Positions 1,736 to 32,760 of a stretch of DNA of 64,000 bases are shown here, piece by piece (within the stretch, counting starts at the first letter, position 1; every line of letters begins with the position of its first letter). Position numbers and translations under genes: made by a program. Under the pieces are notes generated by a model, which was not told the origin of the DNA, did no database searches, and saw nothing but the letters and a program-made list of their open reading frames with translations. Source of the DNA: Tubulanus polymorphus (taxonomy: Eukaryota > Animalia > Nemertea); NCBI RefSeq assembly GCF_964204645.1, contig NC_134030.1:15686110-15750109 (forward strand), read 5' to 3'.

Positions 1736-4700
1736 ATGGGAGAGAGTGAACAACACACAGAACAAATTGATGTTAATGAAAATCAATATTATTGTACATA
1801 TTGTAAAAAATACATTGATAAATCTCATAAAGCACGTCATGAAAAAACTGCAAATCATATAAAAAATGTTATAGATTTTGAAACTCCAGAAAATTCAAGT
1901 GAAAGAAAAGAACGATTAGATGATATGAAAAAAAACGAAATAAAATGTGAAGTTTGTAATGAATTTATAGTAAAACGGAATTATAAAAGACATCTCGAAT
2001 CACAAAGACACCATCATAATTTGAGTAATAATGTTTTAGGAATAGATTATTTCGATGATAAACCTCAACAAGTAAAAAAACCAACTTCAAAAACTAAATC
2101 CATTTCAAATAAACATTACATGGAAAATGTTAGAAATTATATCGATTCACTAGAAATAAGATACAATTAAAATTTTAGAAACATTACATAGTAAAATTGG
2201 TCCTGCAGCCATTATAATTTAGATTTTTTAAAGGTACAAAAATAGAAGATAATAGTAAATTTAATGAAATAATGGGAAAATATTAGATTTGATAACAGAT
2301 GTTGAATATCCAAAAATTAGCATCTCTGGAAAAGTAAGTCAGAAGAGAAAATGGATTATAATATTCAAACACTCTCTGAAGAAATAATTTCAAAAACACA
2401 AATAAAAGAGAAGTTAGAAAAAATATTTAATGAATTTAAACGTCATATTGAAGAAAGATATTTTGAGGGTTCTGGTTTAAGATTGAATGAAATTATATTT
2501 TTAGATTTAAATGTTTATAATACAAAAATGAATAAAACATCAAAAAGTAAAACAATGTTTAAAAATGATTCAAACTTTACTACAGAAAAGGATATTAAAG
2601 CATCAAGTTATATAAAATAACCATTTAGAACAAAAGCAGTAATAAATGTTCAAAATGAAGATAATACATGTTTTCTATGGTCAATTATTAGTTGCTTACA
2701 CCCAACAGAAGATATTACGCATAGATTTAGAATAACAAATTACCGGAAATATGAAACATTATATGAAATTGATCAATATCCAGTAACTATAAAGATGATT
2801 CCTAAAATAGAACAAGTTAATAATTTAAAAATAAATGTATTTGAATTAATGCAATTACCAAAGACAAAAGGTGAAAATATTAAAGATTATACATTAGAAG
2901 CTTTATATTTAACAGAATATTATGATGATGAAAATGCTATAGATTTGTTATATTACAAAAAAGATGAAAATGAACATTATATGTGGTTAAAACAAATTGA
3001 TTTATTCTTTAGAACAGAAAGTGATCATCATCGTAAAATTTATCTATGTAGAAAATGTTTTTCTAAATTTATGACTGAGAATACATTATTAAAACATAAA
3101 GAATTATGTGATAATAAAGATTTTTGTAAATTAATAATGCCAACTAAAAAAGATTGTAAGTTGAAATTTACTTATCATAAATTTAAGAATATTGTTCCAT
3201 TTGTAATTTATGGGGATTTTGAATCGTTGAATTAAGAATTAACTGATCAAGATAGAAAAGAAATATATAACAAAAAGCAATTTTTAAAATCAATGGATAA
3301 AGGAAATGAATTAAATGAAGACATAAATCAAGACCCACCAATCATAAACACAATTTAAAAAGTTCATCAAAGAGCTGCTGCTTATGGAATTTACATAAAA
3401 TCAAATTATCCCGAATTATATGAAAGTCAATATATTTCTTTTAGAGGTGAAAATGTAGTTAATGATTTTTGTAATAAAATAATTCAATTAGAAAGTGATT
3501 TTGCAGAATTATTAAACAAAAATAAAGGAATAGTTGTGACAAAAGAAGATGAAATTGATGTTAATCATGCAACTCATTGTTGTTATTGTGAAAAACGTTT
3601 TTATTCATTTGATAAAAAAGTTAGAGATCATGATCATTTAAATTCAAAATACCGCGGAGCTGCTCATGAAGATTGTAATTTACAAGCTAAGAAAGTTAAT
3701 TTCGTACCAATATTATTTCATAATTTATCAGGCTATGATACCCATCTATTTATAAAACAATTATCGGGAAAATTGGGCGCAATTAATCAAGATATAGAAG
3801 AATATAATGCTATGAATGGCGCAAATGTAAGAAAATATGATTTTAAACTATTAGCTAAGACATCTGAAAATTATATTTCATTTCATTTTGTTTGCATTTG
3901 ATTTTTGGATTCTTATAGATTTCTAGCAAGTTCATTAGATAATTTAGCAAAAGGTTTAGTTGATAATGATTTTATAATAACTCAACATTATTATCCAAAT
4001 GAACAAGATTTTGAATTATTGAGATATAAAGGCGCAATTCCTTATTCATTTTATAAAACGCATGATGATTTTAATGTAACAGAATTATCAAAAGAACAAT
4101 TTTATGATCAATTAAAAGAGGAGTATGTGAAAGATGAAGTGTTTAATAGAACATTAAATATTTGGAATCACTTTAAGATAAAAAATCATGGTAAATTAGT
4201 AGAATTATGTTTAAAATCAGATGTTATGATATTGGCTGATAAATTTAGAGAAGTTAATTTGAATCATTTTAATGTTGATCCTTGTTATTGTTATTCAAGT
4301 CCTGGTTTAACTTGGCAATGTGGTTTAAAATATACAAACGTAGAATTAGATTTATTAAAAGAACCAGACATGGCTTTATTATTTGAAAAATCAATTAGAG
4401 GTGGAATTAGTTTTAATTTAAGGCATACAGAAAAAGATTTAACTGAAGAAGTTAGAGATTTATTTGAAATATATAATCCATCAGATTATGTTTATGATTT
4501 ATCAACTGAAGATGGAACATTTAACTGTGGATTTCCATTAATAGCGGTCAATACTGACGCCTACATACTAAAAATCAAGACAAATGACATAACAAAAGAC
4601 TTAAAAACATTAAAAGATCATTTTGATTTCAGCAATTATCCCAAAGATCATGAACTATTTAGCAATGATAATAAAAAGATTCCTGGTAAGTTTAAAGATG

Positions 4701-5008
4701 AATTAGGGGGTGATGAAATGATTGAATTTGTTGGGATAAGAAGTAAAATGTATAGTTATAGAACAAAAGATCATGAAGCTAAAAAGTTAAAAGGAATAAC
4801 AAAACATGTGATTGATAAACATATAGAATTTCAAGATTATATAAAGTGTTTATATAACTCATTTGTAATGAAACATAAAATGAATTGTTTAAGATCAGAA
4901 GATTACGAGATGTACATTAATGAAGTTGAAAAAACTAGTTTAAATCCATTCGATGATAAAAGATATATTTTAGGTGATGGAATAAAAACATTACCTTATG
5001 GTTATTAA
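1736..5008 (+). pseudogene. polB: Protein-primed family B DNA polymerase, copy 1 (N-terminal Zn fingers, endonuclease VII-like domain, exonuclease; motifs A/B deleted)
   Basis: Fragments with VPFVIYGDFES, CCYCEK..VRDHDH..YRGAAH..CN, FHNLSGYD, DSYRFL, PGKFKDE, PFDDKRY; several stops and frameshifts. Confidence 0.92.
4412..4552 (+). other. C-terminal remnant of an intein (blocks F/G) at the pol-c site of pPolB copy 1
   Basis: YVYDLSTEDGTFNCGFPLIAVN|TD: block F VYDL, terminal Asn, +1 Thr of motif C. Absent from copy 2. Confidence 0.8.
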
Positions 5009-6383: not shown

Positions 6384-6970
6384 TGGGTTGATTTAAAGAA
6401 TATAGAATATTTGTTGATTCTAGAAGACTTAAAAATTATAAATCACATAATTTATTAGTACAATTAGATAGAGAATTTAATAATTGTGTAGATTAAAAAT
6501 TAGTAAATATTAGTTTATGTAACTCATTTTACAATATATCGAATAAAACTGTTGAACATAGAGCCTTTTTAATTTTTAATAAAAATAAAAATGAATGGGC
6601 CTATATATATTTAAAACCAGGGTTATATATTTTAGATACATTGGCACAAGAAATTAATAGAAAAGCCTGGCACAAGTCAGGTAATAATTCCGGGTTTAAT
6701 ATTAGATTTTTAAAAAGTGAGAGTTCTAACAAAATAAAGGTAAGGTTGGCTGATATTGAAAATCATAAATTTATGGTAAAAAAACCTATAGCTAAACTGT
6801 TAGGAATTCCTCCAGATAGATCTTTTACAAATATGTTAAAGAATGTTAAAGAATTTGGAACGCAAATAAATTATAATTTAGCTGAGTGTGATTTCAAACC
6901 ATGCATTCCTAAATTTAATAATTTTAGATTAGAAATTAGAAATCATAATGGATACTTAATTGATTTATAT
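6384..6970 (+). pseudogene. Second, internally deleted copy of the minor capsid (penton-like) gene
   Basis: Near-duplicate of parts of 11235-11885 (IFVDSRR, LKPGLY, FGTQINYNL); fused at ~6970 to pPolB copy 2 sequence. Confidence 0.8.
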
Positions 6971-6974
6971 GAGC

Positions 6975-9900
6975 TCACAGTGATAAAAGATATTATAAAG
7001 AACATTTAAAATCTAAAAGTCATATTAGAAATAAGAATAATGATATTTTAGGTGAAGATTATTTTGATAAAGATAATGATAAGAAACAGAAGACAATTAA
7101 AAGCATAAAAAATAAATTAAACAATAAAAGACCATACATGGAAGATGTAAGAAAATATATTAATTTATTGGATAATAAAATAGATATAGAGCTAACCGAA
7201 GCATTTAAAAGTGATATTGGTCCAGCAGCTATTGAGTTTAAATTTCATAAAGGAAAAACATTAGAAGAAAATAAAAAACATTTAGAAAATATGAAAGAAA
7301 TAATAAAAATAATTACAGATGTTGAATATCCTAAAATTAGTATATCTTCTAAAGTAAAGTTTATAAAATCTGAAGATAAACCAATATATAATATAAATTC
7401 TCATTCACAACATATTATATCTAAACAACTTATAGATGATAAATTAGATAAATGTTATAATGAAGTAAAATCTAAAATAGAAGAGAAATATTTTGAAGGA
7501 TCTTGTTTTATATTTGATAAAATAATATTTATGACTTTACATGTTTATAACACAAAATGTAATAAGTTAACTAAATCAAAACCAATTGATGAAAATAATG
7601 TATCATATTATAAAGAACCAGATATTGAAGCATCGAGTTATATTAAACTACCATTTAAAACTAATGCTGTAATAAATGTACAAAATGAAGATGATAAATG
7701 TTTTCTATGGGCTATAATAAGTTGTTTACACCCAACAGAAGATATTACACATAGTTTTAGATTAACTCATTATAAACCATTTGAAAATAATTATAAGATA
7801 GATAAGTATCCTGTTAGAATTAAAAACATCCCAAAAATAGAAAGAGATAATAATTTAAGAATAAATGTATTTGATTTAATCAAATTACCAAATACAAAAG
7901 GTAACAATATAAAACATTATACATTAGAACCTTTATATCTATCAAAAGATTATGATTCAAACGATGTTATAGATATACTATATTATGAGAATCATTATAT
8001 GTGGATTAAACAAATAGATTTATTTTTTAAATCAGAAAATGATCACCATAAAATATATCTTTGTAGAAAATGTTTACATAAATTCAGTAATGAAAGTACA
8101 TTATTAAATCATAAACAATTATGTGAAAATCATGATTATTGTAAATTAGTTTTACCAAATGAAAAGGATAAAATATTAGAATTCAAAAAATATGATTACA
8201 AAAATAAAGTACCATTTGTTATATATGGAGATTTTGAATCATTCAATAAAGAATTAACTGATCAAGATAGAAAAGAAATATATTATAAAAGAAAGAAATT
8301 AAATTCTAATGAAAATGATTATTCTGAAGAACCACCAAAAACAAATACTATTAAAAAGATTCATCAATCAGCTGCAGCTTTCGGGTTATATATTAAATCT
8401 GATTATCCAGAACTAAAGTGAAAGAAGTGATTGAAAGTGAATATTATCATTATAGAAATGAAAATGTTATCAATCATTTTTGTGACTTATTAATTGAATA
8501 TGAAATAAGATTTAGTAAATTATTGAATACAAATATAGAAATTATAATGACAGAAGAAGATAAAGAAGGATTTGCGTTTGCAGATAAATGTTATTATTGT
8601 GAAAAGATATCTAATTTTAGAGATAAAAAAGTAAGAGACCATGATCATTTGAACGGAAAGTTTAGAGGCGCTGCACATTAGAATTGTAACTTACAAGCTA
8701 AGAAAATTAACTTTGTACCAGTTATATTTCATAATCTATCAGGATATGATGCACATTTATTCATCAAACAGTTATGTCATAAAATAGAAGAAATCAATAA
8801 TGAAATAGAAAGATTAAATTCAAATAGATCAAAAGATAAAATACCAACTTATAAATTTAGAATGTGAGCTAAAACATCTGAGAATTATATATCATTCCAA
8901 TTTGGTTGCCTAAGATTTATAGATTCATATAGATTTTTAAATAGTTCATTAGATAACTTATCAAAATCATTAGTTGATGATGAATTAAAAATATTAAAAG
9001 AATATTACCCAAATAATGATGATTTTCAATTAATGAGATATAAAGGCGCAATTCCATATTCTTTCTATAAAAATCATAATGATTTCAATATAACTGAATT
9101 ATTAAAAGAACAATTCTATGATGAATTAAAAAATGAATATGTTAAAGATGAAGTATATAATAGAACATTGAATATTTGGAATCATTTCAAAATAGAAAAT
9201 CATGGGCAATTAGTAGATTTATATTTAAAATCAGATGTGTTATTATTAACCGATATATTCGAAAGGTTTAGAGATGTAAACCTAAAATATTTTAATATTG
9301 ATCCTTGTCATTGTTATTCATCACCAGGTTTAACATGGGATTGTGGATTAAAATTTACAGATATAAAAATGGATTTGTTAACAAATATAGATCAATTACT
9401 ATTATTTGAAAAATCTATAAGAGGAGGAGTTTCAGGTGTATTAGGTGATAGATATTTCAATGTAAATGATAACCCTGGATATAAGTTATTATATATAGAT
9501 GCAAATAATTTGTGTGGTTGGGCAATGATGGAACCACAACCTTATGGAGTATTTGAATTAACTGAAGTTTTACAGAATGAAAATAATGATAAATTTGATT
9601 GGAAGACAAGAATTCTAGATATTGCAGATGATTCAGATACTGGTTACTTCTTTGTTGTAGATTTAGAATATCCTGAACATATTAAATTTAAATCTAGAAA
9701 TCTAGCATACTGCCCCGAACATAAAACTGTAACTCATGAAGAATTATCAAATTACCAAAAAAGAATTAAACCCGAAAATCATATTCATACAGAAAAGTTA
9801 ATGGTAACTCAGGAAAATAAATATAATTATGTAGTACATTATAGAATGTTAAAGTTTTATTTGAATCAAGGAATGATTCTAAAAAAAGTACATAGATATA

Positions 9901-10834
9901 TTTCATTTAGTCAATCTAAGTGGTTAGAAAAATATATAGATTTTAACACCAAACAGAGAACTGAAGCTAAAACTGATTTCGAGAAAGATTTCTTCAAGTT
10001 AATGAATAATGCATTCTATGGTAAGACTTGTGAAAATATTAGAAATAGAAATGATATTGAGTTAGTTAGTAATGGTAAAAGAATTAGACATTTACAAACA
10101 TATCCTAAGTTCATTGGTAACAGAATATTTGATGAAAATTTAGCCGCAGTTAAAATGAGAAGAACATCAATGAAATTTAATAAACCAATCTATGTTGGCG
10201 CTTCAGTTTTAGAATTATCAAAATTACTAATGTATGAATTCTATTATAATGTATTACAACCACTTTTTGGAGAAAAACATATAGAAATATTATATTTTGA
10301 TACTCACAGTTACGTATTAAAGATAAAAACTGATAACATAACTGATGATTTAAAAACATTAAAACATGATTTCAGTAATTATCCTAAAAATCAAGAATTG
10401 TTTTGCAATGATAATAAAAAAGTTCCTGGTAAATTCAAAGATGAATTAGGTGGTGAAGAAATGATTGAATTCATTGGTATTAGATGTAAAATGTATAAAA
10501 CTAAATATATAAAACTAAAGAACATGAAGCTAAAAAGTTAAAAGGAATAACCAAAAGTGTAGTAGAAAAGAATATTCATTTCAAAGATTACATAAATTGT
10601 ATATTCAATGAAGAAGTTAGAAAACATAAAATGAGATGTTTAAGATCTGAAGATCATGAAATGTTTATTGAAGAAATTTAAAAGATAAGTCTAAACCCAT
10701 TTGATGATAAAAGATATATTTTAGATGATGGAATTCATACAGTTGCTTATGGATGTAATTTAGATGGATACTTAAAATTTAAAAGAGAAGAAACAAAAGA
10801 GAACGACATAATGAAAAGAATTCTAACGTGTTAA
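6975..10834 (+). pseudogene. polB: Protein-primed family B DNA polymerase, copy 2 (near full length, disrupted)
   Basis: Motif A YIDANNL, motif B KLMNNAFYGK, motif C YFDTHS (catalytic D replaced by H), Exo and endo VII-like motifs; stops near 8681 and 8866 and frameshifts. Confidence 0.95.
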
Positions 10835-11234: not shown

Positions 11235-11885
11235 ATGGTAGAATTAAAAGAATACAGAATATTTGTTGATTCTAGAAGACTTACAAATTATAAATCACAT
11301 AATTTAATAGTTCAATTAGATAGAGAATTTAAGAATTAAATGGTTTTTTTATATTTAAAACCAGGATTATATAATTTAGATACATTAGCACAAGAAATTA
11401 ATAGAAAAGCTCGAGCTAAATTAGGAAGTGATTCCGGATTTAGTATTAGAATTTTAAAAAGTGATAGTTCTAATGAAATAAAGATTAGGTTAGCTAATGA
11501 CGAACAATTTAAATTTACAGTAAGAAAACCTTTAGGTAAACTGTTAGGAATTAACCCAGATATTGTTACAGCATACGCAGAAGGTAGATCAAACTTAATA
11601 CCTTTTACACATTTTTATATTTATTGCAATTTAATTGACCCAACAAAAACATTTGAAGCAACTAAAGATACAATTTGTAATTCTAGTATATTAAATATTT
11701 TACCATTAAAAAATGTTAAACAATTTGGAACGCAAATAAATTATAATTTAGCTGAATGTGATTTTAAACCTTGTATTCCACATTTCAATAATTTTAAATT
11801 AGAAATAAGAAATCATAATGGTTATTTAATTGATTTGAATAATTTTCCTGTGATATATGAATTAGTTATAAGATGTAGAGAGTAA
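11235..11885 (+). pseudogene. Minor capsid protein (penton-like, single jelly roll) with a deletion at ~11338
   Basis: MVELKEYRIFVDSRR start at 11235, then PGLY, FYIYCNLI, ILNILPL, G.LIDLNNFPVIYELVI pattern typical of Polinton minor capsids. Confidence 0.75.
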
Positions 11886-16266: not shown

Positions 16267-17514
16267 ATGAGTGGGAGTTATATAAGTCCTTCTAAGATTT
16301 CTAGAATATCTAATGCTATTAAAGCAGAAAGATCACATCATATAATTACTCATAATCCTTCAAATATTAATCCTGATGAAACTTTATATGTTAGAATTCC
16401 TAGATTAACACAAAATACTTTTTATGTTCCAAATAGTATTTATTTATCAGCTGATATAAAAGTAACTGGCCATGATAACAATTATGTTGTTGATAATGTT
16501 GGAAGGTATTTGATTAAAAAGTTAACAATAAAGATTGGTCCAGAAACAGTTTTCTCATTAGATGATTATAATTTATTTATGCATTATAAAGATTTATGGT
16601 TAACTATAGAAAATAGAAATAATATGATATTTCAGGGTATTCAATCGGAAAACCATAATAAATTAAGATCAGGAGCTAATGACGCAATAGTAACTCGTGC
16701 CACAGATAATTTGATTAAAAAGATTTATGGAAGCAAATATAAAATTCCATTAGACTTTGAATTGATAAATAATAATGCACCTTTATATAAATACGCAATT
16801 CGAGAAGATATTATATTTGAGATAACATTTGCTCCTGTAAATGAAATTGTATTATCTAGCGTTGTTAAAGATATGGGTTATACATTATCGAATATATGTT
16901 TAGAATATGACACAGTAACTAATGAAAATATTGCTAGCACAATTCAAACTCAATACAATCAAGGATTTTCATTATTATATGGTTATATTGATAAATTTAA
17001 AACTGTAACTATTAATGCAAATGATGAAATTATTAATGAGAATATTAACTTCCCAAGAAGATCTATTAAAGGTATATTAATATTTTTTACCATTGCAACA
17101 TATTCTAATGGCGCAATAAAGGTTGATAATTATTATAATCCTGAAATAACAAAAGTAGAAATAACTATCGAAGGAATAGCAAATAAAATATTTTGTCAAG
17201 GAATGAGAATGATTGATCAGTGGACAGAAATTAGAAAACATTTTATGAATGAAAAAGTAAAATCATTTGAAAATTGTAATATTGATCAAATTGATTATTA
17301 TACCGGTAATAAATATGCATTATGGTTAGATTTTAGAACAACAGAGGATAATTCATTACATGGTTCTGGAAAAAAATTACAGAACACTAAAGATGGAATA
17401 CAATTATTCGTGACAAAGAATAAAGGAAGCCTAAATTTCAAAATGCATATTTATATTATATCTGACGCGCAATTAAATATTGTAAATTCTCAATTAAATA
17501 GTGTTATGTATTAG
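16267..17514 (+). CDS. Major capsid protein (double jelly roll, Polinton type), intact
   Basis: 415 aa, beta-rich; size and position fit a Polinton MCP; NVGRYLIKKLTIKIG, KYKIPLDF, KYALWLDFR segments. Confidence 0.8.
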   Translation: MSGSYISPSKISRISNAIKAERSHHIITHNPSNINPDETLYVRIPRLTQNTFYVPNSIYLSADIKVTGHDNNYVVDNVGRYLIKKLTIKIGPETVFSLDDYNLFMHYKDLWLTIENRNNMIFQGIQSENHNKLRSGANDAIVTRATDNLIKKIYGSKYKIPLDFELINNNAPLYKYAIREDIIFEITFAPVNEIVLSSVVKDMGYTLSNICLEYDTVTNENIASTIQTQYNQGFSLLYGYIDKFKTVTINANDEIINENINFPRRSIKGILIFFTIATYSNGAIKVDNYYNPEITKVEITIEGIANKIFCQGMRMIDQWTEIRKHFMNEKVKSFENCNIDQIDYYTGNKYALWLDFRTTEDNSLHGSGKKLQNTKDGIQLFVTKNKGSLNFKMHIYIISDAQLNIVNSQLNSVMY

Positions 17515-18682: not shown

Positions 18683-18726
18683 TTATTATAAAACTATTTA
18701 TATATCTATAAAAATATTTATATATC

Positions 18727-18984
18727 TATGCACTAGACGTATGAGTATGAAAGTAAGAACCCAAGAATCCTTGCCAAGAAATATAAATTATAAACATAAA
18801 TTATAAACATAAATTATAAACATAAATTATAAACATAGTTTTAATATATAATTTATTCATTATTATACATTTCATTTAATAATTCATATTTCTATGGACT
18901 AGACGTACGTTAGAATCCAAGATTCTTGCCAAGAAAGAAAAAAGGTAAGAATCTTACTTTCTTACTCGTACGTCTAGTACATAG
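18727..18984. repeat. ~33 bp inverted repeat plus short AT tandem repeat between convergent gene blocks
   Basis: CTATGCACTAGACGTATGAGTATGAAAGTAAGA versus its reverse complement at ~18951-18984; third partial copy at ~18891; ATAAATTATAAAC x4. Confidence 0.75.
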
Positions 18985-18994
18985 AAATATAAAT

Positions 18995-19630
18995 TAGTTT
19001 CTATAATATTCCAAATTATAAATAGTTATTTTATAAATTTATATTCATAGGGAAATTGAAGTCTCAGTAATAATTTTGAACCTTTATTATTCTTTAATTT
19101 ATTCATATATTCATCATAATTCAGTAGGTATAATTTGATTTTCTTCCAATGATTGTTGCATAGATTTTCTATCTTTGTTATAAAATAAAACTAGAAATCT
19201 TATATTCTCCCTAAAGTCTTTAACAATTGAATTATATTTTTGATTTAAAACCCATGTTGTTATCCCAAAATGTCTCCCAGAGAAAGCTAAGTAACTCACT
19301 TTCTCTCACTTTTGAATCATGTAAATTTGCGCAATCATCTACAATGAATAATGTATTTGATCCTTTATAAGTATCAATTGCTATTTTAATACAATTATCT
19401 AAATTTTCTTTTACTGTTTTAGGATCTGATATAATAAACTTTTTCATCTTAACTATATCTCTATTGTATGTTTTATTCATTTCATAAGTAGGACAGAATA
19501 ATATTATATTATCAAAATGATTCTTATAAATAATTTCTAACAAATCTAATATGAAATGTGTTTTACCACAGTTTGTTACTCCAGTAACTAACATATTATG
19601 AGGTTCAAATATAAATAAATCTTTATTCAT
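18995..19630 (-). pseudogene. FtsK/A32-like genome packaging ATPase, frameshifted
   Basis: Walker A GVTNCGKT, Walker B FIVDD, GRHFGITTWVLNQ motif in the second frame. Confidence 0.9.
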
Positions 19631-20714
19631 TTATTCTTTTAATTTTACTAGATAAAATCCATTCATTAAATTTATCATCGTATCCTTTATATTTCACCAA
19701 AGAATACTTTTTTCCTTTAAGAGTTTTTGTTTTCAATACTTTTTCTATTTTGTATTCTATTTCATCTGGATTTGGTACAAGTGATAATTCTTGTTCATAG
19801 AAATAACCTAATATTTCTTCATCTTTTAGATCTTCTAGTTTATAAACAAAAGGTTTAGTAAATATTATCTTTTTAATCTTAAATATTTCTTCAGTAAAAT
19901 TTGGGGTATAACCTTTATAAAAGGTTTTTCTATATTTAGATATTCTGACGTGTTGTCCAATTTTGAATCTAGGTTCACCGAAATCATGTGTAACAAACGC
20001 TCCATATAGATTATTCCAAACTATTTCCGAATTATCTTCTTTTCTAGCTTGTATAGGTTTCATATTTATAGAACTATGTTTAGAATTATTATAACCTTTC
20101 ACTAAATCATCTAATACATCGATATAAATATATGTTTCATTAGCAGTAAAATATTTCCACATTCTAGTTTTCAATGTTTTATTAAATCTTTCTATAATAG
20201 ATGCTTTTTTATCTGAGTGTGTTGAAAAATAATCTACATCGTTATCAGATAATAGTTTTTTGAAATGTTTGTTATAAAATTCCTTACCTTCATCAAATTG
20301 TATCTTATCTGGAATAGCTTCTTTAAATATAGATTTAAAAGCATTTGTCACTTCTATACCAGTTCTATTTTTGATTGGAATTGACCATGCGTATCGACTG
20401 AATATGTCTATAACATTCAGTATCCAGAAATATCCTTTGTTGTATTCTTCTAAGTTCTTCATGTCAATTAAATCTGCTTGCCATTGTTGATCGATATATG
20501 AAACCATAACTTTTCTTGTTAAATAAGTTTTATCCATTTTCTTGTGAATTCGATATGTTGGTTGATTTTGTAACAATGATTTCAATTCACTATATTTTAT
20601 ATTACCATTTTCATTATCAGATTTAATTTCATTCCATAATTCTGAAACGTTAGAATATGATACTTCACTTTCTGGGTTATAATATAAATCTCTTAAATAT
20701 TGTTCTTTTTTCAT
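19623..20714 (-). CDS. Retroviral-like (rve) integrase with C-terminal chromodomain, intact
   Basis: WQADLIDM, IDIFSRYAW, QFDEGKEF, KASIIERFNKTLK (DDE); chromo YKIEKVL..LVKYKGY..NEW. Confidence 0.95.
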   Translation of the reverse strand: MKKEQYLRDLYYNPESEVSYSNVSELWNEIKSDNENGNIKYSELKSLLQNQPTYRIHKKMDKTYLTRKVMVSYIDQQWQADLIDMKNLEEYNKGYFWILNVIDIFSRYAWSIPIKNRTGIEVTNAFKSIFKEAIPDKIQFDEGKEFYNKHFKKLLSDNDVDYFSTHSDKKASIIERFNKTLKTRMWKYFTANETYIYIDVLDDLVKGYNNSKHSSINMKPIQARKEDNSEIVWNNLYGAFVTHDFGEPRFKIGQHVRISKYRKTFYKGYTPNFTEEIFKIKKIIFTKPFVYKLEDLKDEEILGYFYEQELSLVPNPDEIEYKIEKVLKTKTLKGKKYSLVKYKGYDDKFNEWILSSKIKRINE

Positions 20715-20719
20715 CTTCT

Positions 20720-21090
20720 TTTAATCCATTAATAATAATCTTGGGTTATTTTCAATGGTTTTAGGATTTGACTTATTTTCTGGTATAATAGGTTTATTGT
20801 CATTGGAATCATCTTTATCATTAGATTTGAATTTTGATTTATATATTACACCGGATAATATAATAACTGTTACTAATCCAATTGTAATATATAATTTATA
20901 ATTGCTTCCAGCATTAGAAGAATCAGATGGATTATTATTTGAATCAATATCAGATAAAGTCTGTGATTCATTTATATCAGTTAATTTCTTTTTCTTAGCT
21001 TTTTTTTAATTCTGAAGATCTTTTACCTAATTCTCTTGCCCATTTAATTTGTTTCTCGGATCTAGCCTTTTTCTTAACTCCATCACTCAT
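20720..21090 (-). pseudogene. Small Polinton protein with a TM segment, frameshifted
   Basis: TAAATG start at 21090, basic N-terminus, LYITIGLVTVIIISGVI; boundaries approximate. Confidence 0.5.
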
Positions 21091-21940: not shown

Positions 21941-22621
21941 TCATTTCGGATCCTTGATATCAAATTCCTCAACGTATTGTTCATTATTTGGATCATTGTT
22001 CCATTGATCAATAAATTTCTTTGCCTTTGTTAACTGTTCTAAATATAACTGTAAATCTAGTTTATTAGATTTAATTATGTTTTCCTTCTTTTCTAAAGGT
22101 CTTAGATTCTTCCAATTCCAAATAAGTTTTTTATTGTATTCATCATTCATGTTAAATTTAGAAATCGGCAACACGTGATCAATATGGTAATAATCCCCAT
22201 AATTATCTATATTCATTTTATCATCGAATTGAAATATAATCCATGATTTGAGAAATTCATCTGAACAACCCAATAGATTAGATAGTGTTTCTGAATGTGT
22301 TTCTTTGTTGAATAATTGTGTTAATCTAGATCTTAAGCATTGTTTCAATCTAAAATTAAGATCTGTTTGATATCTTTCTCTCATAAATTCTGTCATATAA
22401 TCATTATAAGCTTCTCTATTATCTTCTCGGTATTGTTTGGTATATAGTTTAAAACAAGTTTTACAGCAATATTGAAAACCACCTTTGCTAATCTTACGCT
22501 TACTAAATTCTGTTAAAGCTAATTTATCTAATTCACATTTAGAACACTTCTTGTAATATATATTTATAACACCACCAGTGTTATTTGTAATATTGATAGT
22601 TTGTGGTTGTTCTGGTTCCAT
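21941..22621 (-). CDS. HNH-family endonuclease with N-terminal Cys4 zinc finger, intact
   Basis: CSKC..EF..CKTC; YHIDHVLP..WKNLRPL..ENIIKSNK, a pattern seen in NCLDV and phage HNH proteins. Confidence 0.75.
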   Translation of the reverse strand: MEPEQPQTINITNNTGGVINIYYKKCSKCELDKLALTEFSKRKISKGGFQYCCKTCFKLYTKQYREDNREAYNDYMTEFMRERYQTDLNFRLKQCLRSRLTQLFNKETHSETLSNLLGCSDEFLKSWIIFQFDDKMNIDNYGDYYHIDHVLPISKFNMNDEYNKKLIWNWKNLRPLEKKENIIKSNKLDLQLYLEQLTKAKKFIDQWNNDPNNEQYVEEFDIKDPK

Positions 22622-23425: not shown

Positions 23426-26154
23426 CACCAATCAGATTTACACAATACATTATACAAGTATGTTCGATCGTTGTATTGACAAAATTTATAGTTTCAACTA
23501 ATACATTATTAGGGTTTTCTGTTTCTTCACAGAAAACCCTATTGAAATTCGCGTGATTATTATTATTTTTTTTCCCTTTTCCACATAGTTTTTGTTAAAA
23601 GTGTAAAGGCTTCCTTACCTTACCGCTGTCGCCGATACAATCCGTATGATGTCCTTCAGCTCACTTCAATCTCCAGATACTGCATGGGAATTTTGATAAA
23701 TCCACGTTATAAAGGCACTGTCGAGCCGTAAACATCAGAAATTTGGCTCCATTCAATTAGTAGCCATGTTGTGTTTTCATACCGATATTTCTCTCTTCTT
23801 TTCGAGGAAGAGCTATCGAATAATTCCCTCTCTTCTTCACAATCAATTTCAAAGTCAATTTTATGAATTAATTGCTCAGCGGTTCCGAGTCCAAGAGTTT
23901 ACGAGTCCGGCGTTCGCGTGTCTGACAGGTTTACGGGCATTTGTTTGTTACCTCTTTAATATTTTTGATTTCTTGTTATTCCGGTTATTTTATTTAAGTA
24001 TATTGCTGATCAGTTCATGTAACCAAAAGCGTCAATAAACAGACTTTGAATTGATCAAGTTTAAATCAAGGTCGTTGAGTCGCGGAAGGCTACTTTAGAA
24101 TTACGTTCGTCTTCGTCTCGCAAAAACCGTAATGTTTCCAATGTCTCCGTTTTTAACGCATGCGCATGATGTATGTGTTGGGGAAATTCTCTAAGTCCAG
24201 AAAACAGTCGAGTGCGCAGGCGTCACTACATGTCAGAACTTCAATAACATGTGAATGGCTACCAGCGTCACTGTAGTTTCTCTTAGGTTCGAATCCCAAA
24301 TAATTTTGATCTTAATTCAAATTTTGACGACCCAGTGTCGCTAGTTAATCTGTTTGCAGTGCCATTGAGTTCGAATCCCGAATATGTTATAGAAAAATAC
24401 TTGCACGGAATTTTTTTTTTCAAGTACGAAAATTCCAGCTTACTGCATCCGGTTGTCCCAAAAATAGAAATGATCCTCTGACAAAATACGAAGAATGCCT
24501 CATCATCCAGTTCACAATTGCGAATTAAAATTAGTCAAAAAAGCATAACTCACGCCTTACATCTATGGAAAGGTCCCAAATCGATTGAACAACAAGAGAA
24601 AACTTAATATATGCTTATATACGTATATGATACGAATGGAATAAATTTATTTGGATAATTCACTTGTTTGTGTAAATATGATATACAAGATTATCAAGAC
24701 ATTAGGCCTACAGAGTCAACAATTATGGTTTACCAAACAAGTTTTTAGTGGTAACAATTAAACCACTGCCTCTAGGAAGTCATGAAGAAAGCACCCTTCC
24801 CACGTTTTAGTTCCCAGGTACTCGCCCCATGACTACCACAATAGCAGTGAAATAACAATTACCTCATATACATACATCAAAGTAAAAACAGTACACCAAA
24901 GATGTATATACAAAAACCATGGATAGATCTGTGTAATAATAGAAGTATAAATAATATATTGCAGTGAAAACAGTATACCTTTCATAAGATGTACATATAA
25001 AAACAATGAATAGATCTTTAATAATACATGTATAAATAATATATCACAGTGAAAACAGTACACCAAAGATGTAAATATAAAAACAATGAATAGATCTTTA
25101 ATCATACATGTATAAATAATATATCACAGTGAAAACAGTACACCAAAGATGTAAATATAAAAACAATAGATATATCTGTAATGATACATGTATAAATAAT
25201 ATATCACAGTGAAAACAGTACACCAAAGATGTAAATATAAAAACAATAGATATATCTGTAATGATACATGTATAAATAATATATCACAGTGAAAACAGTA
25301 CACCAAAGATGTAAATATAAAAACAATAGATATATCTGTAATTGTTGGGAGAGTTCTCGGTCCAACACCACGGGGTTTCGGGCTCACTCCACTGACAGGC
25401 GATGGGAGTGAGGAAGCGAGCGAGGAGGACTGTATAGGTTCTCGGACAGAAGCAAAGCAAAGGCCGGGCAGAAGCAGAAGCCAGGCGGGTCGACAAGGCA
25501 GAAGCAAAGCCAGGCGGGTCACCAGACAGAAGCAAATTTAGCGAGTCGGCCAGAGTCACGTTCCCTGGTTGAAGCAGCAAGGCAGAGTCGTCGTCCTGTC
25601 CCTTGAAGCAGCCGTTCCTTTCGTCATGAAATGACTAACTTTAAGACTTTCTTCAGACTATAGCGATTTATTTAGCGGAGAGATGTGTACAGTCAGGCTT
25701 GCATAGATGAACTGATTTTACAGGATATTTGTTGCGGCTTTTATACAAAATCAGGCTGGGAACTAATTATGATTACAATCTGTTGAGAATGTTACAAACT
25801 GTCAAAATGTTACTATAAAAAGGATTAAAATATACAAACGAGAGAACAGGCACAGTCTTAAACTAGTTAGAAACAAAATAATACACGTGTTATAGATTAT
25901 GAAACGCGAGTTCACACGGGATCTCGGTGGTAACCAGGTCCACGCGCACTATAGCCATCTGGCTTTGATGAACTGTTGTAACGGTTACAACATCCTCCCG
26001 CGCCAAAGTCCGGTATAGTCCAAATACGGTAAATCACGAAAATACACGAACACGCGTAATTGTTCTTTCACGAAAACATTGATAATCGGCGGCGAATAGA
26101 TGATCGGTCCAACATCGAGAGTTCGCAATAAGATGTCGGCGTGTCGCAAACAGT

Positions 26155-29100
26155 TCAGGCATCGAGTCGACAAACTTTCGTCGCTGGTCGCCTGTAGACT
26201 CCGCTTGTCGTCTTGAGTTCCACTGAGCGGACATGTCCATCGCTTCCGGGGTGGACATCGATGATACGTCCGAGCGGCCACTGACCACGTGGCAGGTTGT
26301 CATCGGCGAGTAGTACCACATCGTCGATTTGTAGGTCTCGGCTTGCGGTCTTCCATTTGGTTCGCTGGACAAGTGTCGGCAGATATTCCCGCGTGGAGCG
26401 AGCCCAGTACTGATTAGTGAGTGCCTGGGCCTGTCGCCATCGTTTTCTGGCGTTCAAATCATCAGCGTCAAACACTCCGGGTGGTAGGTTCGGGTTCGTC
26501 TTGCCGAGTAGAAAATGGCTCGGTGTTATCGCCTCCGGTTCGTCGTGGCTGGAGTTGACGTACGTCAGTGGCCTAGAATTCACGACGGCTTCGACTTCGG
26601 TAAACACGGTGTGCAGCACTTCATCGGTGACAATTTGTTTTCCCAGGACCACTTTCAAGTTTCTTTTAACGGACTGGACCAGACGTTCCCAAACTCCACC
26701 CATATGGCTAGCGGCAGGTGGGTTGAAATACCACTGGATGTGATCTTGTGACGTTGCATCGGCGATTTTCGTCTGGTTCAGCTTCGTCAACTGGTCTCGA
26801 AGTTCCTTCTCGCCACCAGTAAAATTGGTCCCATTGTCCGAGTAGATTCTCTTTGGTTTTCCGCGTCTAGCGATGAATCGCCTAAGTGCCATTATGAAGC
26901 TGTCCGTGTCTAATGAGTACGCAACTTCCAAGTGCACAGCTCTGGTGGCCAGACACGTAACCAGCAGCCCGTATCTTTTCTCCGTCTTACGGAACTTTCT
27001 CACTTGGAGCGGTCCGAAGTAGTCGATACCGACACTGCTGAACGGGCTCGCGGTGTCGAATCTGGCAGCAGGTAGGTCGGCCATTATCGGCGGCTGTGGC
27101 TTCGCTCTTCTTTTAATGCAGTAAGCGCATCGGCGAACGAGTTTCTTCACGGTCGAACGACATTCGGGGATCCAGAACTTCTGCCGGATTTCGTTCATCG
27201 TTACTGCTAGACCACCGTGGAACATTTGGTGGTGATAGTGGTGGATGATTAGTCTCGTCACTTCGTGGTTCTTCGGCAGCAGTATCGGATGTTTCGCGGC
27301 TTCTGCGATCGGTGCGTTTTTTAAGCGACCACCAACTCTCAAGACACCGTTCTCATCAAGCTTCGGAGTTAGCGGCAGTATCTTGCTAGTTCTCGAGATT
27401 GGTCGGTGGCTTCGTAAATCAGCTATTTCCTCGCCGTACGCTGCTTCTTGTGCCGCTTTGAAAATCAGCATTTCCGCCTCTTCGAGCTCTGAAACTTTCA
27501 GCGGCTCGGTGTTCGCGACGTCTCGCTTCATCAGGATCGACTTAGCCCTGACTACTGTCGCGACGACTCGTTTGTATTTCATCCACGAGGACCATCTAGC
27601 AGGGTCTGGAAGCGTGGTTGACACTTCTGCGACGGACAGTGTGTTGACTTTCTTAACTTCGGGATCGTCTTGCAGCATTGAGTCGACTAGCTTCGACTTC
27701 GGCCAGTTTGTGTCATCAAGTTTGAGGAATTCAGGTCCTTCTAGCCAGACGCTGGACTTGAGTTCTGTGACGGTGGCACCTCTCGACACGATGTCAGCTG
27801 GGTTCAGACTTCCTGGGATGTGTCGCCATTGGTTTGGATGCGAGGAGTCGTGGATTTCAGCTACCCGATTGGCGATGAAGATGTGGAATCGTTTCGTTTC
27901 ATTTGCGATATACTTCAGCACAATTTCGCTGTCCGACCAGAATATCGTCTCATCGATTACATAGCTGATTTCTTTGCGAATGGTGTCGGCTAGTCTCACG
28001 GCCAGGACTGCTGCTTGCATCTCTAACCTAACTATTGATAGTTTCTTCAGCGGGGCGACGCGACATCTGCTCATGACGAATGCGACTCGGACGTTGCCAT
28101 CAGCGTGTTGCGTGCGAAGGTAAGCCACGGCACCGAAGGCTTTATCGGATGCGTCACAGAAGACATGTAGTTGTCGCCCGGTCGACGGCACATCTGGTGC
28201 TCGGTAACATCTCGGAATTTTCAGCATCTCAAGTTTGATCAATTCTTTGAGCCAGATCTGCCAATTTTCTAGGTCCCCACCAGTTAGTTCATCGTTCCAG
28301 TCGAGTTTTTGACACCAAAGACGTTGCATCAGGATTTTCGCCTTAACTGTGAATGGTGCAGCAATGCCAAACGGGTCAAAAACTGATGAAACTTTGCTTA
28401 GCACTCCCCGTTTGGTAGCCGGCGTCATTGCTTCTCGGACCTTGAAACCAATCGTGTCTGACTCTGGATCCCATATCACCCCGAGGGTACGTTCAGCGGG
28501 TAGCTGGTCGGCCATCAAATCGATCGACTGGCAGCTGACTTCGGATGGTGGTAATGCTTGCAGGACTTCACGACTGTTGCTCGTCCATTTCGTCAGTCTG
28601 AATCCACCACGTTTCACCAGCATCGTTACATCTTTTGCGCGTTGAATAGCTTTGGCGGTCGAATTTTCGGACTTCAGAAAATCGTCCATGTAGAAATGTT
28701 TTCTAATGGCTGCGGCGGTTTCTGCGTCTACTTCTGATTCATTGTCTTCTGCTGTCTTTCTTAAGACGTAATTCGCCATGGCTGGAGAACACCGGGCGCC
28801 GAAGATTGTGACTTGCATTTCGTAGACGTCTGGCGGTCTCGTGGTATCTAAGTCTCTCCACAGAAAACTGAGGGCTGGTCGGTCCTCTTCTCGAACTTTT
28901 ACTTGGTGATACATCTGCTCGATATCGGCCGTTATAGCAATCGGCTCTTCTCTGAATCTTAGCAGGATTCCTGGTAGGCTTTGGAGCAGATCTGGGCCGG
29001 TTATGAGTTGGTTATTCAGTGACACTCCCTGGTAAGTGGCAGCAGCGTCAAATACTACTCTGATCTTCTTCTAGTTTGGGTTTACGACGGCGTGATGCGG

Positions 29101-31889
29101 CAAATACCATCTCTTCTTCTGGTTAGAGGCAGCTTCAAGTGGCGTAAGTTTACAGGCGTAGCCATCGGCGATGTAAGCTGCGAATGTCTGCTTATATGCT
29201 TCTGCTTTCACCGGGTCACGAATCAAGGACTTCTCGGTCGTTTCTAATCGGCGGTAGGCCATAGGGCGATTATTCGGTAACTGCACGTCGTCGTTCTTCC
29301 ACAGTAGGCTCGTCTCGTATCTGTCACCGAGACATCTCGTTCTCTCTCGCAGGATCTTATCGGCTCTGATATCTTCTCGGGATTCGGCTACGGGCTTGTC
29401 GTACTTCGTTCCGAAAGACTCCGTTGACCACCATGCATCAAGCGTCTCGTGGATATTATCGGTCGACTTCCCGAGGCACAATACGTTTCTTTCAGTCGTC
29501 TGTTCGGTATTCGCCATATTGCCGGTAACGGACCAGCCAAAATCGGTTCTTACGGCAATCGGTCGGCCGGGCCCTGCTGTTCTGACTTCGTGCTGGATGA
29601 TGGCTTCGATGACGTTGGCTCCCAGCAGAACTTCTACTTGCCCGGATGACGTTTCTGGTATACAAATGTCACTGAAGTAGTTTTCGATTATCGTTTTCTT
29701 TATCTTCGGCATCGAAACGTTCAATCTGGGTACAGCCCACGCCTCGTTGACTTCTATGACGTTGTTGACGGCTTCGGGTCCGAGCGGTTTGATTTTCATC
29801 TTGAATTTAAGCGTCTTGTACCGTTCACCGTCATTTTCGACATTGCTCAACTTCAGAAATTTTCTTTCGCCGCTGATACCGAGTCGATCAACAAGTCTGC
29901 TACAGCACAGTGACGTTTGTGCGCCTGAGTCGAGCAGCGCATAGGTATCTTGGTGCTGACCTCCGTCGCCATAAAGTCTGACTGGAACGACTTGCAGTAT
30001 GGCGTTTGACACGTTATGCTTCTGGCGGCTAGTAGTGTTGATTTCGGCTTCAGTCTCGTAGTATTCTTGGTTGTTGACGGATGATTCATCTGATAGACAC
30101 ACTGCAGCGACTTCTCTCTTCGGGTACACTCGTTGACTCCCGTGTAGCAGGGGGTGATGTTTCCCCTTGCAGTTTGGCTGGGTACACGTTTTCTTGCCAG
30201 GACAGAATCTCACACGATGACCTTCTCCCAAGCAGCAGAAACATCTCTTTGACACTGCAATGTACGCTGATCTCTCGTTGACAGACTTCAGCTTAAACGT
30301 TCGACATACAGCGAGCTTATGGTCTTCGTTGCAGAGTGGACATTTAGCTTGATTCTGGGTCGTGAACATCGATCTAGTATTCGGTCGTGGTCGGTCGAAA
30401 CTTCGAGTTTCTCTTGTTTCAGTCCGCGTGGCTGGACAGTTCAATGATATCTTCACTTGCTGCGTCAACCATCTACTCAAGTCAGACAGGTTTGGGCGGC
30501 GTGGTTCAATCTCAAATACTTTCTTGCCCCATTCACGGTTGAGTTCTGGCGGTAGCTTCATTACGATTCGGCGAAGATTCTCTACGCTTGCTAGGTCACC
30601 CTGATAGCCGAGATTCTCAAGGGTCGTCACGGCACAGTGAAGGCTAGCTTGAAATCTTTCGAGCGGTCCTGCATCACAATTCTTCAGCGGGGGCTGTGTG
30701 AAAACTTTCTTGAGGCACGCTTTCACGACGTCTTCTTCTCGGCCGAATCTTTCTTCGAGTGATCTCAGAGCTTGGTGATATAGTCGACCTTCGTACATCA
30801 TACCGGCAATCGTCTGCTGTGCGACACCGGTCACGGCTGACTGCAAGTGCGTGATTTTCTCTGTGTTTGTAAGATCTGGTTGGTCGTCGATCAGCGCCTT
30901 AAACAAACCATACCATTTCGGCCAATCGCTTGGATCACCGTCAAACTTGTGCAAATGTATCTTCGGTACGGACTTTGAGAATAGATGGTTCGATCTTCTG
31001 CTTTGATTGGTTGGTTGGTTTCGGTTCGGCTGATATTCGGGTTGATACGACATGGACCAGTCAGGCGGCGGTATAACGGGCTGCATCGGCGGCAGAGTTC
31101 TATCGGGCTGTGACATCGGCAGGATTCTATCGGGCTGTGACATCGGCATGATTCTATCGGTCTGCGACATCGGCAGGATTCTATCGGGCTGCGACATCGG
31201 CAGGATTCTATCGGGCTGCGACATCGGCAGGATTCTATCGAGCTGCGACATCGGCAGGATTCTATCGGGCTGCGACATCGGCAGGATTCTATCGGGCTGC
31301 GACATCGGCAGGATTCTATCGGGCTGCGGCATAGGCAGGATTTCGTCGTCGAAGTCACGTAGGCGATCAGCGTTTAAGACATCTGCGTCTTGGAGGCTGG
31401 CTTCTAGCGCGGCGGCGTCGGCTTCGTCTTGAGCCTGGGCTAGCTTGGCTTGACGAGTGAGTTCATCTTGTTGACGTTCTATTTCGAGGCGACGTCTCAG
31501 TTGTTTTACTTCAAGGGCCTTCTTCTGCGCACGTACGGTGGTTGCTCGTGACGCCGCTGACGAGGCCTTTGACATGACGGATGAGGCGTCGTCAGCTCTT
31601 GACTGCAGATAGGTCTTAATGCTAGCGACCATCTGTGTGTGCGTCTCTTCGATTTCGGTGACGTATTTCTCTGCGGCGGCTGTCTCGTTTCATCGTTGAG
31701 GCTATCGACGTACGTGTCGTTGGCTATCGCGACATTTTCTAAGGCGTCTGCTAACTTCTGGACCAGCGACACCAACTGGGTTCGGCTGCCTCGAACTTCG
31801 ATCAGCGTGGTCACTTGGTTGCAGATCCGGGTAAACGTTGCTTTTCTGCAGCCTCGGGTGGTCTTCAGTTTTCTGCTTTCTTCGGTCAT
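26155..31889 (-). pseudogene. BEL/Pao gag-pol polyprotein (Gag, Cys-His knuckles, protease, RT, RNase H, integrase) with one frameshift and one stop
   Basis: ALLDSGA protease, YLPHHAV, FYMDD RT, FCDAS RNase H, GIDYFGP/SDNGTNF integrase; frameshift near 31690, in-frame TAG at 29071-29073. Confidence 0.95.
31090..31342 (-). repeat. 27 bp coding tandem repeat (ILPMSQPDR)n in Gag
   Basis: About 9-10 in-frame units. Confidence 0.95.
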
Positions 31890-32760
31890 CTTCGTTGTCT
31901 TCTATCCGGTTCGAGGGACCAGTAAATGTTGGGAGAGTTCTCGGTCCAACACCACGGGGTTTCGGGCTCACTCCACTGACAGGCGATGGGAGTGAGGAAG
32001 CGAGCGAGGAGGACTGTATAGGTTCTCGGACAGAAGCAAAGCAAAGGCCGGGCAGAAGCAGAAGCCAGGCGGGTCGACAAGGCAGAAGCAAAGCCAGGCG
32101 GGTCACCAGACAGAAGCAAATTTAGCGAGTCGGCCAGAGTCACGTTCCCTGGTTGAAGCAGCAAGGCAGAGTCGTCGTCCTGTCCCTTGAAGCAGCCGTT
32201 CCTTTCGTCATGAAATGACTAACTTTAAGACTTTCTTCAGACTATAGCGATTTATTTAGCGGAGAGATGTGTACAGTCAGGCTTGCATAGATGAACTGAT
32301 TTTACAGGATATTTGTTGCGGCTTTTATACAAAATCAGGCTGGGAACTAATTATGATTACAATCTGTTGAGAATGTTACAAACTGTCAAAATGTTACTAT
32401 AAAAAGGATTAAAATATACAAACGAGAGAACAGGCACAGTCTTAAACTAGTTAGAAACAAAATAATACACGTGTTATAGATTATGAAACGCGAGTTCACA
32501 CGGGATCTCGGTGGTAACCAGGTCCACGCGCACTATAGCCATCTGGCTTTGATGAACTGTTGTAACGGTTACAACAGTAATGATACATGTATAAATAATA
32601 TATCACAGTGAAAACAGTACACCAAAGATGTAAATATAAAAACAATAGATATATCTGTAATGATACATGTATAAATAATATATCACAGTGAAAACAGTAC
32701 ACCAAAGATGTAAATATAAAAACAATGAATATTCTGTAATAATACATGTATAGATAATAT

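Follow-up and report, generated by a model that had tools for sequence, protein, structure and literature searches.

The Mimivirus DNA polymerase B (PolB) intein, a pol-c allele (Ogata et al. 2005, PMC549080; this and the other PMC sources are cited from excerpts), lies in motif C at YGD/TDS (slashes mark junctions), is 351 amino acids long, begins with Ser, ends with Asn followed by Thr, and carries a LAGLIDADG domain. Simple homing between even less distant polymerases was already thought implausible in that work, and an insect iridovirus intein recorded there offers a precedent for animal-infecting viruses. Inteins in eukaryotic nuclear DNA have likewise been linked to viral donors (Green et al. 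2018, PMC5784728; Anaeramoeba, PMC10710043); the hosts named in these excerpts are fungi, algae and some protists alongside large DNA viruses (PMC5784728), with Anaeramoeba and some algae added (PMC10710043), and neither an animal nor a Polinton is among them. Multicellular organisms have been described as lacking inteins (PMC5874633), and inteins as mostly confined to prokaryotes and unicellular eukaryotes (PMC7765530). Animal Hedgehog proteins share the Hint fold (PMC7765530) with the intein described here, but their Hint domains have no nuclease, are not inserted into another protein, and show no empty alleles.

In animal Polintons, HNH and VSR nuclease domains are known as inserts in the polymerase pPolB2 (Jeong et al. 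2023, PMC10748475), and nuclease inserts in Polinton polymerases have been suggested, speculatively, to be intein invasions (Krupovic et al. 2024, PMC11161782; preprint PMC11071308). In the available text of PMC10748475 and PMC8502044 the word "intein" occurs zero times, the former also being without Hint or LAGLIDADG, and the excerpts of PMC12220804, PMC5718144, PMC13768754 and PMC3671162 use it in general terms only. No description of a Hint-type intein in a Polinton was found in the literature searched, supplements and subscription journals lying outside the search.

Here we analyzed a 64,000-nucleotide stretch of DNA (the window) with a decayed Polinton whose polymerase retains what sequence comparison confirms as an intein end, and we compared it with intact relatives. 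The Polinton intein (333–354 residues where whole) shares with that of Mimivirus its insertion site, the first Ser, last Asn and following Thr, and the LAGLIDADG domain. The Mimivirus host protein, however, is a Pol-delta-like enzyme, whereas the Polinton intein resides in a protein-primed polymerase of a chromosomally integrated element present in many copies, and its C-terminal block is shorter, in a form shared with one group of viral inteins. Both its insertion between the Asp and Thr of motif C and its kinship with other inteins there place it in the pol-c allele under the site definition of PMC549080. The archaeal homing inteins TliVMA (7qsu, 7qss), PI-PkoII (2cw7) and PI-PfuI (1dq3) have the same predicted fold, a Hint domain around a two-motif LAGLIDADG domain, but are only 12–19% identical and sit in other host proteins or other domains of life. 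The pPolB2 inserts are likewise nuclease domains within a polymerase; here, in contrast, a Hint domain with all splice-junction residues is seated in motif C. We regard the allele as one already known among inteins, but residing here in a host protein of a new kind and, likely, in a new kingdom.

The Polinton Locus and Its Two Polymerase Copies

The decayed Polinton occupies ~1,700 to 22,700 of the window, and the Polinton/Maverick gene set is present: protein-primed PolB (in two copies), a retroviral-type integrase with a chromodomain, a packaging ATPase and a capsid-like gene, the capsid match being weak. The annotated features are as follows.

1980..5008, forward strand: polymerase copy 1 (protein-primed PolB), with in-frame stops at 3233-3235, 3356-3358 and 3899-3901 and a deletion
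4410..4412, forward strand: deletion junction, pre-motif A polymerase joined in frame to the intein tail, ~590 codons gone
4412..4552, forward strand: last 47 codons of the intein by sequence comparison (last endonuclease-domain strand, linker, C-terminal Hint strands with blocks F and G, final Asn at 4550-4552)
4553..4555, forward strand: Thr of polymerase motif C, first residue after the intein, +1 nucleophile position
6391..6966, forward strand: partial duplicate of 11243-11836, in three pieces of 82–94% identity with internal gaps
6973..10752, forward strand: polymerase copy 2, intein-free and broken (Pfam DNA_pol_B_2, E 3.6e-12)
10299..10304, forward strand: empty intein insertion site in copy 2, Asp/Thr codon boundary 10301/10302
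16267..17514, forward strand: Polinton gene resembling a major capsid protein (weak Pfam Capsid_N match, E 0.025)
19232..19630, reverse strand: packaging ATPase fragment (Pfam Pox_A32, E 3.3e-6)
19623..20720, reverse strand: retroviral-type integrase with chromodomain (Pfam rve, E 1.1e-9; Chromo, E 8.1e-5)
25338..32576, reverse strand: BEL/Pao retrotransposon outside the Polinton (Pfam Peptidase_A17, E 2e-51; DUF5641; DUF1759), terminal repeats 99.8% alike

At the DNA level, copies 1 and 2 align over 1980-4408/6992-9431 at 72% and over 4551-5001/10300-10752 at 77%. The break from 4408/9431 to 4551/10300 bears out the observation of the sequence-only reading that a 47-residue segment of copy 1, ending right before the motif C Thr, has no counterpart in copy 2. 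Neither polymerase gene can work: copy 1 is dead given the ~590 missing codons and the in-frame stops, and copy 2 is in several split frames with the second Asp of motif C missing. The duplicate at 6391-6966 bridges the copy 1 block and the start of the copy 2 block, from which we infer that the locus probably combines two subfamilies, one with and one without the intein, brought next to each other by recombination or insertion. No long terminal inverted repeats were present among the 25 longest inverted pairs in 1-26000, and the element looks truncated and rearranged.

Several other features of the locus were noted. Copy 1 carries an endonuclease VII-like insert at 3359-3901 (Pfam E 5.7e-4), found too in the relatives P0004, P0006 and P0013, which may be the known pPolB2 insert of HNH type. 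Immediately to the left of the Polinton gene set, 1426-1489 contains a 29-bp hairpin with a 6-nt loop; at 18707-19003, where the two gene blocks converge, there are nested inverted repeats (52 nt at 85% and 30 nt at 93%), and a free-standing 226-residue frame with a weak HNH match (21941-22621, reverse strand; E 0.063) lies near the right end of the Polinton. Further along, an unbroken 1,787-codon frame (37055-42418, reverse strand), in which Pfam recognises only a C-terminal PHD finger, is probably a transposon gene.

The BEL/Pao element is a recent insertion, as its near-identical terminal repeats indicate. Given that BEL/Pao is described as a metazoan subclass (PMC3118150), we took this neighbor as a marker, and the host of the Polinton is likely an animal.

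The 47-Residue Segment

The same reading had taken the segment for the C-terminal tail of an intein at the pol-c site, and this interpretation held. Alone, the segment is 68% identical to the intein ends of both P0002 (a polymerase carrying the complete intein, described below) and P0001. Together with the next 66 residues it aligns to P0002 without gaps (74/113 identities, 65%; E 4e-49), and the 47 residues by themselves map gap-free onto residues 312-358 of the modelled intein of P0196. The block F Asp is present, VYD being invariant in the 8 rows of the alignment, and copy 2 yielded no counterpart to the segment (best E 0.10).

Searched with a profile of 65 distinct viral-type PolB inteins without Polinton rows (from the 77 of 89 loci with both ends found), the 1,822 peptides from all six frames of the window gave the segment as the sole match (E 1.6e-7, the runner-up at 0.31); it scored 33.4 bits against at most 10.5 in 2,000 shuffles, 1,448 of which scored. 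This test is not fully independent and leans in favor of a match, because the patterns used to gather the loci derived from an alignment that included the segment. The proposed Hint/intein search on the 47 residues divided: the PolB-intein profile matched, but the segment alone gave no intein match in Pfam, NCBIfam or PDB sequence searches. The Atlas search gave an unlabelled cluster (0.91), with LAGLIDADG and PolB clusters below 0.9, which we treat as leads only.

On the P0002 scale, 591 residues are gone from the window copy: 284 belong to the polymerase and take in motifs A and B, and the other 307 belong to the 354-residue intein, as had been supposed in the claim that an in-frame deletion removed motifs A/B and the N-terminal part of the intein. 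The block A nucleophile, block B Thr/His and LAGLIDADG motifs went with it, leaving a remnant and not a working intein. Taken together, these sequence comparisons confirm that 4412-4552 encodes the C-terminal end of an intein, inserted in a Polinton polymerase at motif C (the pol-c site). Two other ideas were rejected: a Hedgehog-type Hint domain, given the nuclease and empty alleles of the relatives, and selection for the in-frame junction, given the three upstream stops in copy 1 and the one-third of deletions that keep frame by chance.

Intact Relatives with the Whole Intein

Of 14 candidates in a protein search with the segment, one matched: P0001, whose sequence continues upstream as a LAGLIDADG-like domain. 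A search from P0001 returned five matches among 546 candidates, including P0002. Metagenome records supplied most of the relatives. This 1,693-residue Polinton-type polymerase contains a 354-residue insert between the Asp and Thr of motif C (YGD/S...N/TDS), as expected of the pol-c site assigned earlier, with Ser first, Asn last, Thr next and two LAGLIDADG motifs (Pfam DNA_pol_B_2, E 5e-17; LAGLIDADG_3, E 6e-7; Intein_splicing, E 5e-7). P0002 and its relatives support the claim that a Polinton lineage carries a PolB intein: complete YxD/S...N/TD inteins with a LAGLIDADG domain were recovered, and ordinary polymerase sequence in place of the segment did not occur in full-length sisters.

The Pfam Intein_splicing cut-off was passed by P0195, with P0002-P0006 falling under it, and among the five complete Polinton-clade carriers compared with TIGR01445, P0003, P0004 and P0196 scored above the cut-off and P0002 and P0195 just below; P0002, P0004-6 and P0195-7 were above that of LAGLIDADG_3. 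All eight complete Polinton-clade inteins checked displayed Ser1, VTxDHS, two LAGLIDADG-type motifs with Asp, the block F Asp and a final Asn followed by Thr. After the intein, copy 1 and P0001 read TDA and the other carriers TDS.

A structural model of P0196 (pLDDT 94) matched the nuclease-bearing archaeal TliVMA intein (7qsu; Foldseek E 8e-18), so the insert of the relatives has, as modelled, a Hint fold. Against viral models, its best named matches were PolB inteins of a phycodnavirus, Pandoravirus and Megavirus (26–33% identity). One further Polinton-type polymerase with a complete intein, P0197, is filed under a genome bin of Candidatus Thiodiazotropha ex Ctena. This bacterium is presumably a clam gill symbiont, and host clam DNA contaminating the symbiont bin is a possible source.

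Intein Copies in Reads with the Same Species Label

Four sequencing runs, all from one study, matched part of the window, the best holding 33% of its words. In X5, which comprises raw genomic reads with the same species label (1.9 Gb, 12% of the run), depth was ~175 on the intein tail against 287 upstream and 354 downstream. At 50–60% of the flanks, this depth indicates that about half of similar copies carry the tail, a rough figure given clipping and divergence. At the deletion junction, 233 reads match the window up to 4411 and then diverge from it, and 95 join it at 4410 or 4412, coming from other upstream DNA; therefore, most copies are without this deletion. None of the contig pieces listed spans the window's own junction, and a complete intein of this organism was not seen in X5, the reads showing only other DNA preceding the tail. 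Among the tail variants in the best 40 of 71 rows, 17 of 24 fell at third codon positions (p 2e-4, with linked variants not independent), which suggests that selection acts on the frame of the intein tail.

The Penultimate Residue

The sequence-only reading had also remarked that the penultimate residue of the segment is Val and not the usual His. Val is indeed there, and neither block F nor block G has a His; however, a non-His residue is common at this position. Of 127 non-redundant full-length inteins, 82 have His, 38 Lys, six Ser, one Ala and none Val (45/127 non-His), making Val a weak sign of decay, and natural inteins lacking the penultimate His have been noted before (PMC5874633). In X5, ~63 of 99 reads across the codon carry the letters of the window, with 30 more clipped just before it. 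As so many reads share these letters, Val marks a subfamily, not private decay of the window copy.

Spread, Phylogeny and Donor

A third search yielded 202 matches among 2,044 candidates, and of 112 proteins classified at least 15 have Polinton-type flanks. A first, rapid tree (57 rows: three fragments and 54 of the 127 inteins) placed the segment with P0001 and P0002 in a Polinton clade of eight rows, supported at 99. In a more careful tree, unrooted and drawn with a midpoint root, from which the segment, P0001, P0122 and the long-branched L001 were dropped and to which ten rows were added, 15 Polinton-clade rows form one branch (100/99), 11 with flanks classified as Polinton-type and four with flanks too short. 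Adjoining this clade are P0097 (83/81) and then giant-virus-type and two T4-like polymerase inteins (88/81) with the same short form of block F/G. Trees built from the flanking polymerase sequence largely recover three lineages in common with the intein tree; empty alleles fall within two of these and need two changes. What the Polintons carry is a full LAGLIDADG intein, present in many copies and spread over three deep Polinton lineages.

Other searches gave little from Polintons. P0001 was the only protein with Polinton flanks among the 150 best representatives, a metagenome scan with the whole of P0002 gave no relatives among 597 pattern matches, and a degenerate DNA pattern had no matches in viral contigs. 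In a second metagenome scan, none of the best 80 of 120 relatives, ranked against a giant-virus intein, had Polinton-type flanks. Loci L002-L004 were dropped, having no intein end. Among the viral-type polymerases, P0038-P0048 carry at least two related inteins, with a motif B-like site (…KxSAN/S) occupied besides motif C, and the T4-like-looking P0049, P0087 and P0124 contain the same intein group as giant-virus polymerases, which hints at exchange between phages and giant viruses.

The donor had been proposed to be a co-infecting nucleocytoplasmic large DNA virus. A giant virus is a likely source, judging by the neighboring branch and by the diversity of these inteins in RNA-primed-type PolB (138 of 149 classified matches), on which we relied because the tree is unrooted; the proposal stands less firmly given this rooting, the modest support of the sister row, and the presence of the same intein group in T4-like phages.

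Alternative Explanations

It is scarcely conceivable that the segment belongs to the polymerase proper or resembles an intein by chance, P0002 and P0013 having already refuted this. The silence of Pfam, NCBIfam and PDB on the segment alone would fit such a look-alike, but it is opposed by the alignment to P0002, 65% identical and gap-free through the intein end and motif C, by the absence of the segment from copy 2 and from P0013, and by the profile and shuffle results. It is also quite improbable that the host is not an animal, or that animal DNA has been joined in this scaffold to a Polinton from a protist or symbiont, with the deletion perhaps an assembly error. The 33% of window words in the best run and the lack of a listed contig piece across the junction leave some room for this. 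However, the BEL/Pao element lies only ~2.6 kb from the last Polinton gene, genomic reads of the same species label cover the region at a depth above 100 from 1.9 Gb, and the Polinton has decayed in the manner of a chromosomal copy. Even a wrong junction would leave the intein claim intact, because the tail is continuous with downstream polymerase sequence in both reads and contigs.

More serious, if still unlikely, is the prospect that the intein family is real but that the Val-bearing subfamily of this host cannot splice and has been passively amplified by helper Polintons. The absence of Val at this position from all 127 full-length relatives, a tail without His in block F or G, and the TDA of copy 1 and P0001 in place of TDS would agree with such a loss, whereas the third-position bias of the tail variants (17/24 listed), the many reads sharing the codon letters of the window (~63/99, with the 30 clipped just before), and the occurrence of Phe or Leu at the position in four of 149 viral-type matches (P0125, P0129, P0146, P0172) speak against it. 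We give a similarly low standing to a donor other than a giant virus, be it a phage, archaeal-virus or cellular PolB, or to transfer from Polintons to viruses. The T4-like phage polymerases P0049 and P0087 (typed by sequence reading) in the neighboring branch, the 83/81 support of P0097 and the midpoint root favor that idea; against it, the neighboring branch is mostly of giant-virus-type polymerases, some from contigs labelled GVMAG, the RNA-primed-type PolB pool is far more diverse than the single Polinton clade, and the Atlas neighbors are mostly Nucleocytoviricota clusters, all below 0.9.

Predicted Splicing and Homing

We consider it probable that the segment is the leftover of an intein that interrupts motif C in intact Polinton relatives, one predicted to be self-splicing and likely spreading through cleavage of copies that lack it, the host being likely an animal. 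Splicing would follow the standard course through Ser1, the Thr/His of block B, the terminal Asn and the Thr after it, and the polymerase would depend on it, since the two Asp residues of motif C lie on either side of the insert. Where two Polinton genomes meet in one nucleus, the nuclease may cut the empty site and repair would then copy the intein in. Of 31 cluster members examined, nine have intein motifs and one, P0013, spans the empty site; it is 99.4% identical to the carrier P0003 over 310 residues, which fits homing and also precise loss. Long co-descent together with a very recent gain or loss is the pattern that would be expected of a homing cycle, and precise loss also fits. The Polintons may have received the intein once, long ago, from the pool of viral PolB inteins, a giant virus being the most likely donor; co-descent with gains and losses would have followed, and the window copy is a dead, deleted member of the intein-bearing family. 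We advance more tentatively, as a proposition slightly less likely than not, that the intein is active today in animal Polintons, such that it would splice in animal cells without the usual penultimate His, its nuclease would convert intein-free copies as a protein-level homing drive, and its origin would lie in an old giant-virus transfer.

The window locus itself is a fossil, and its interest lies in the intein family revealed by it. The natural Lys, Ser and Val variants of block G offer a ready set for studying splicing without His. Through this intein, splicing as a gate on Polinton replication in animal cells and homing among endogenous copies become testable. If the interpretation is correct, a conserved, nuclease-bearing intein in many copies in animal Polintons would end the reported absence of inteins from animals, though in a virus-like element and not a host gene, and it would show directly, at the sequence level, that Polintons and large DNA viruses have exchanged material between two distant classes of polymerase.
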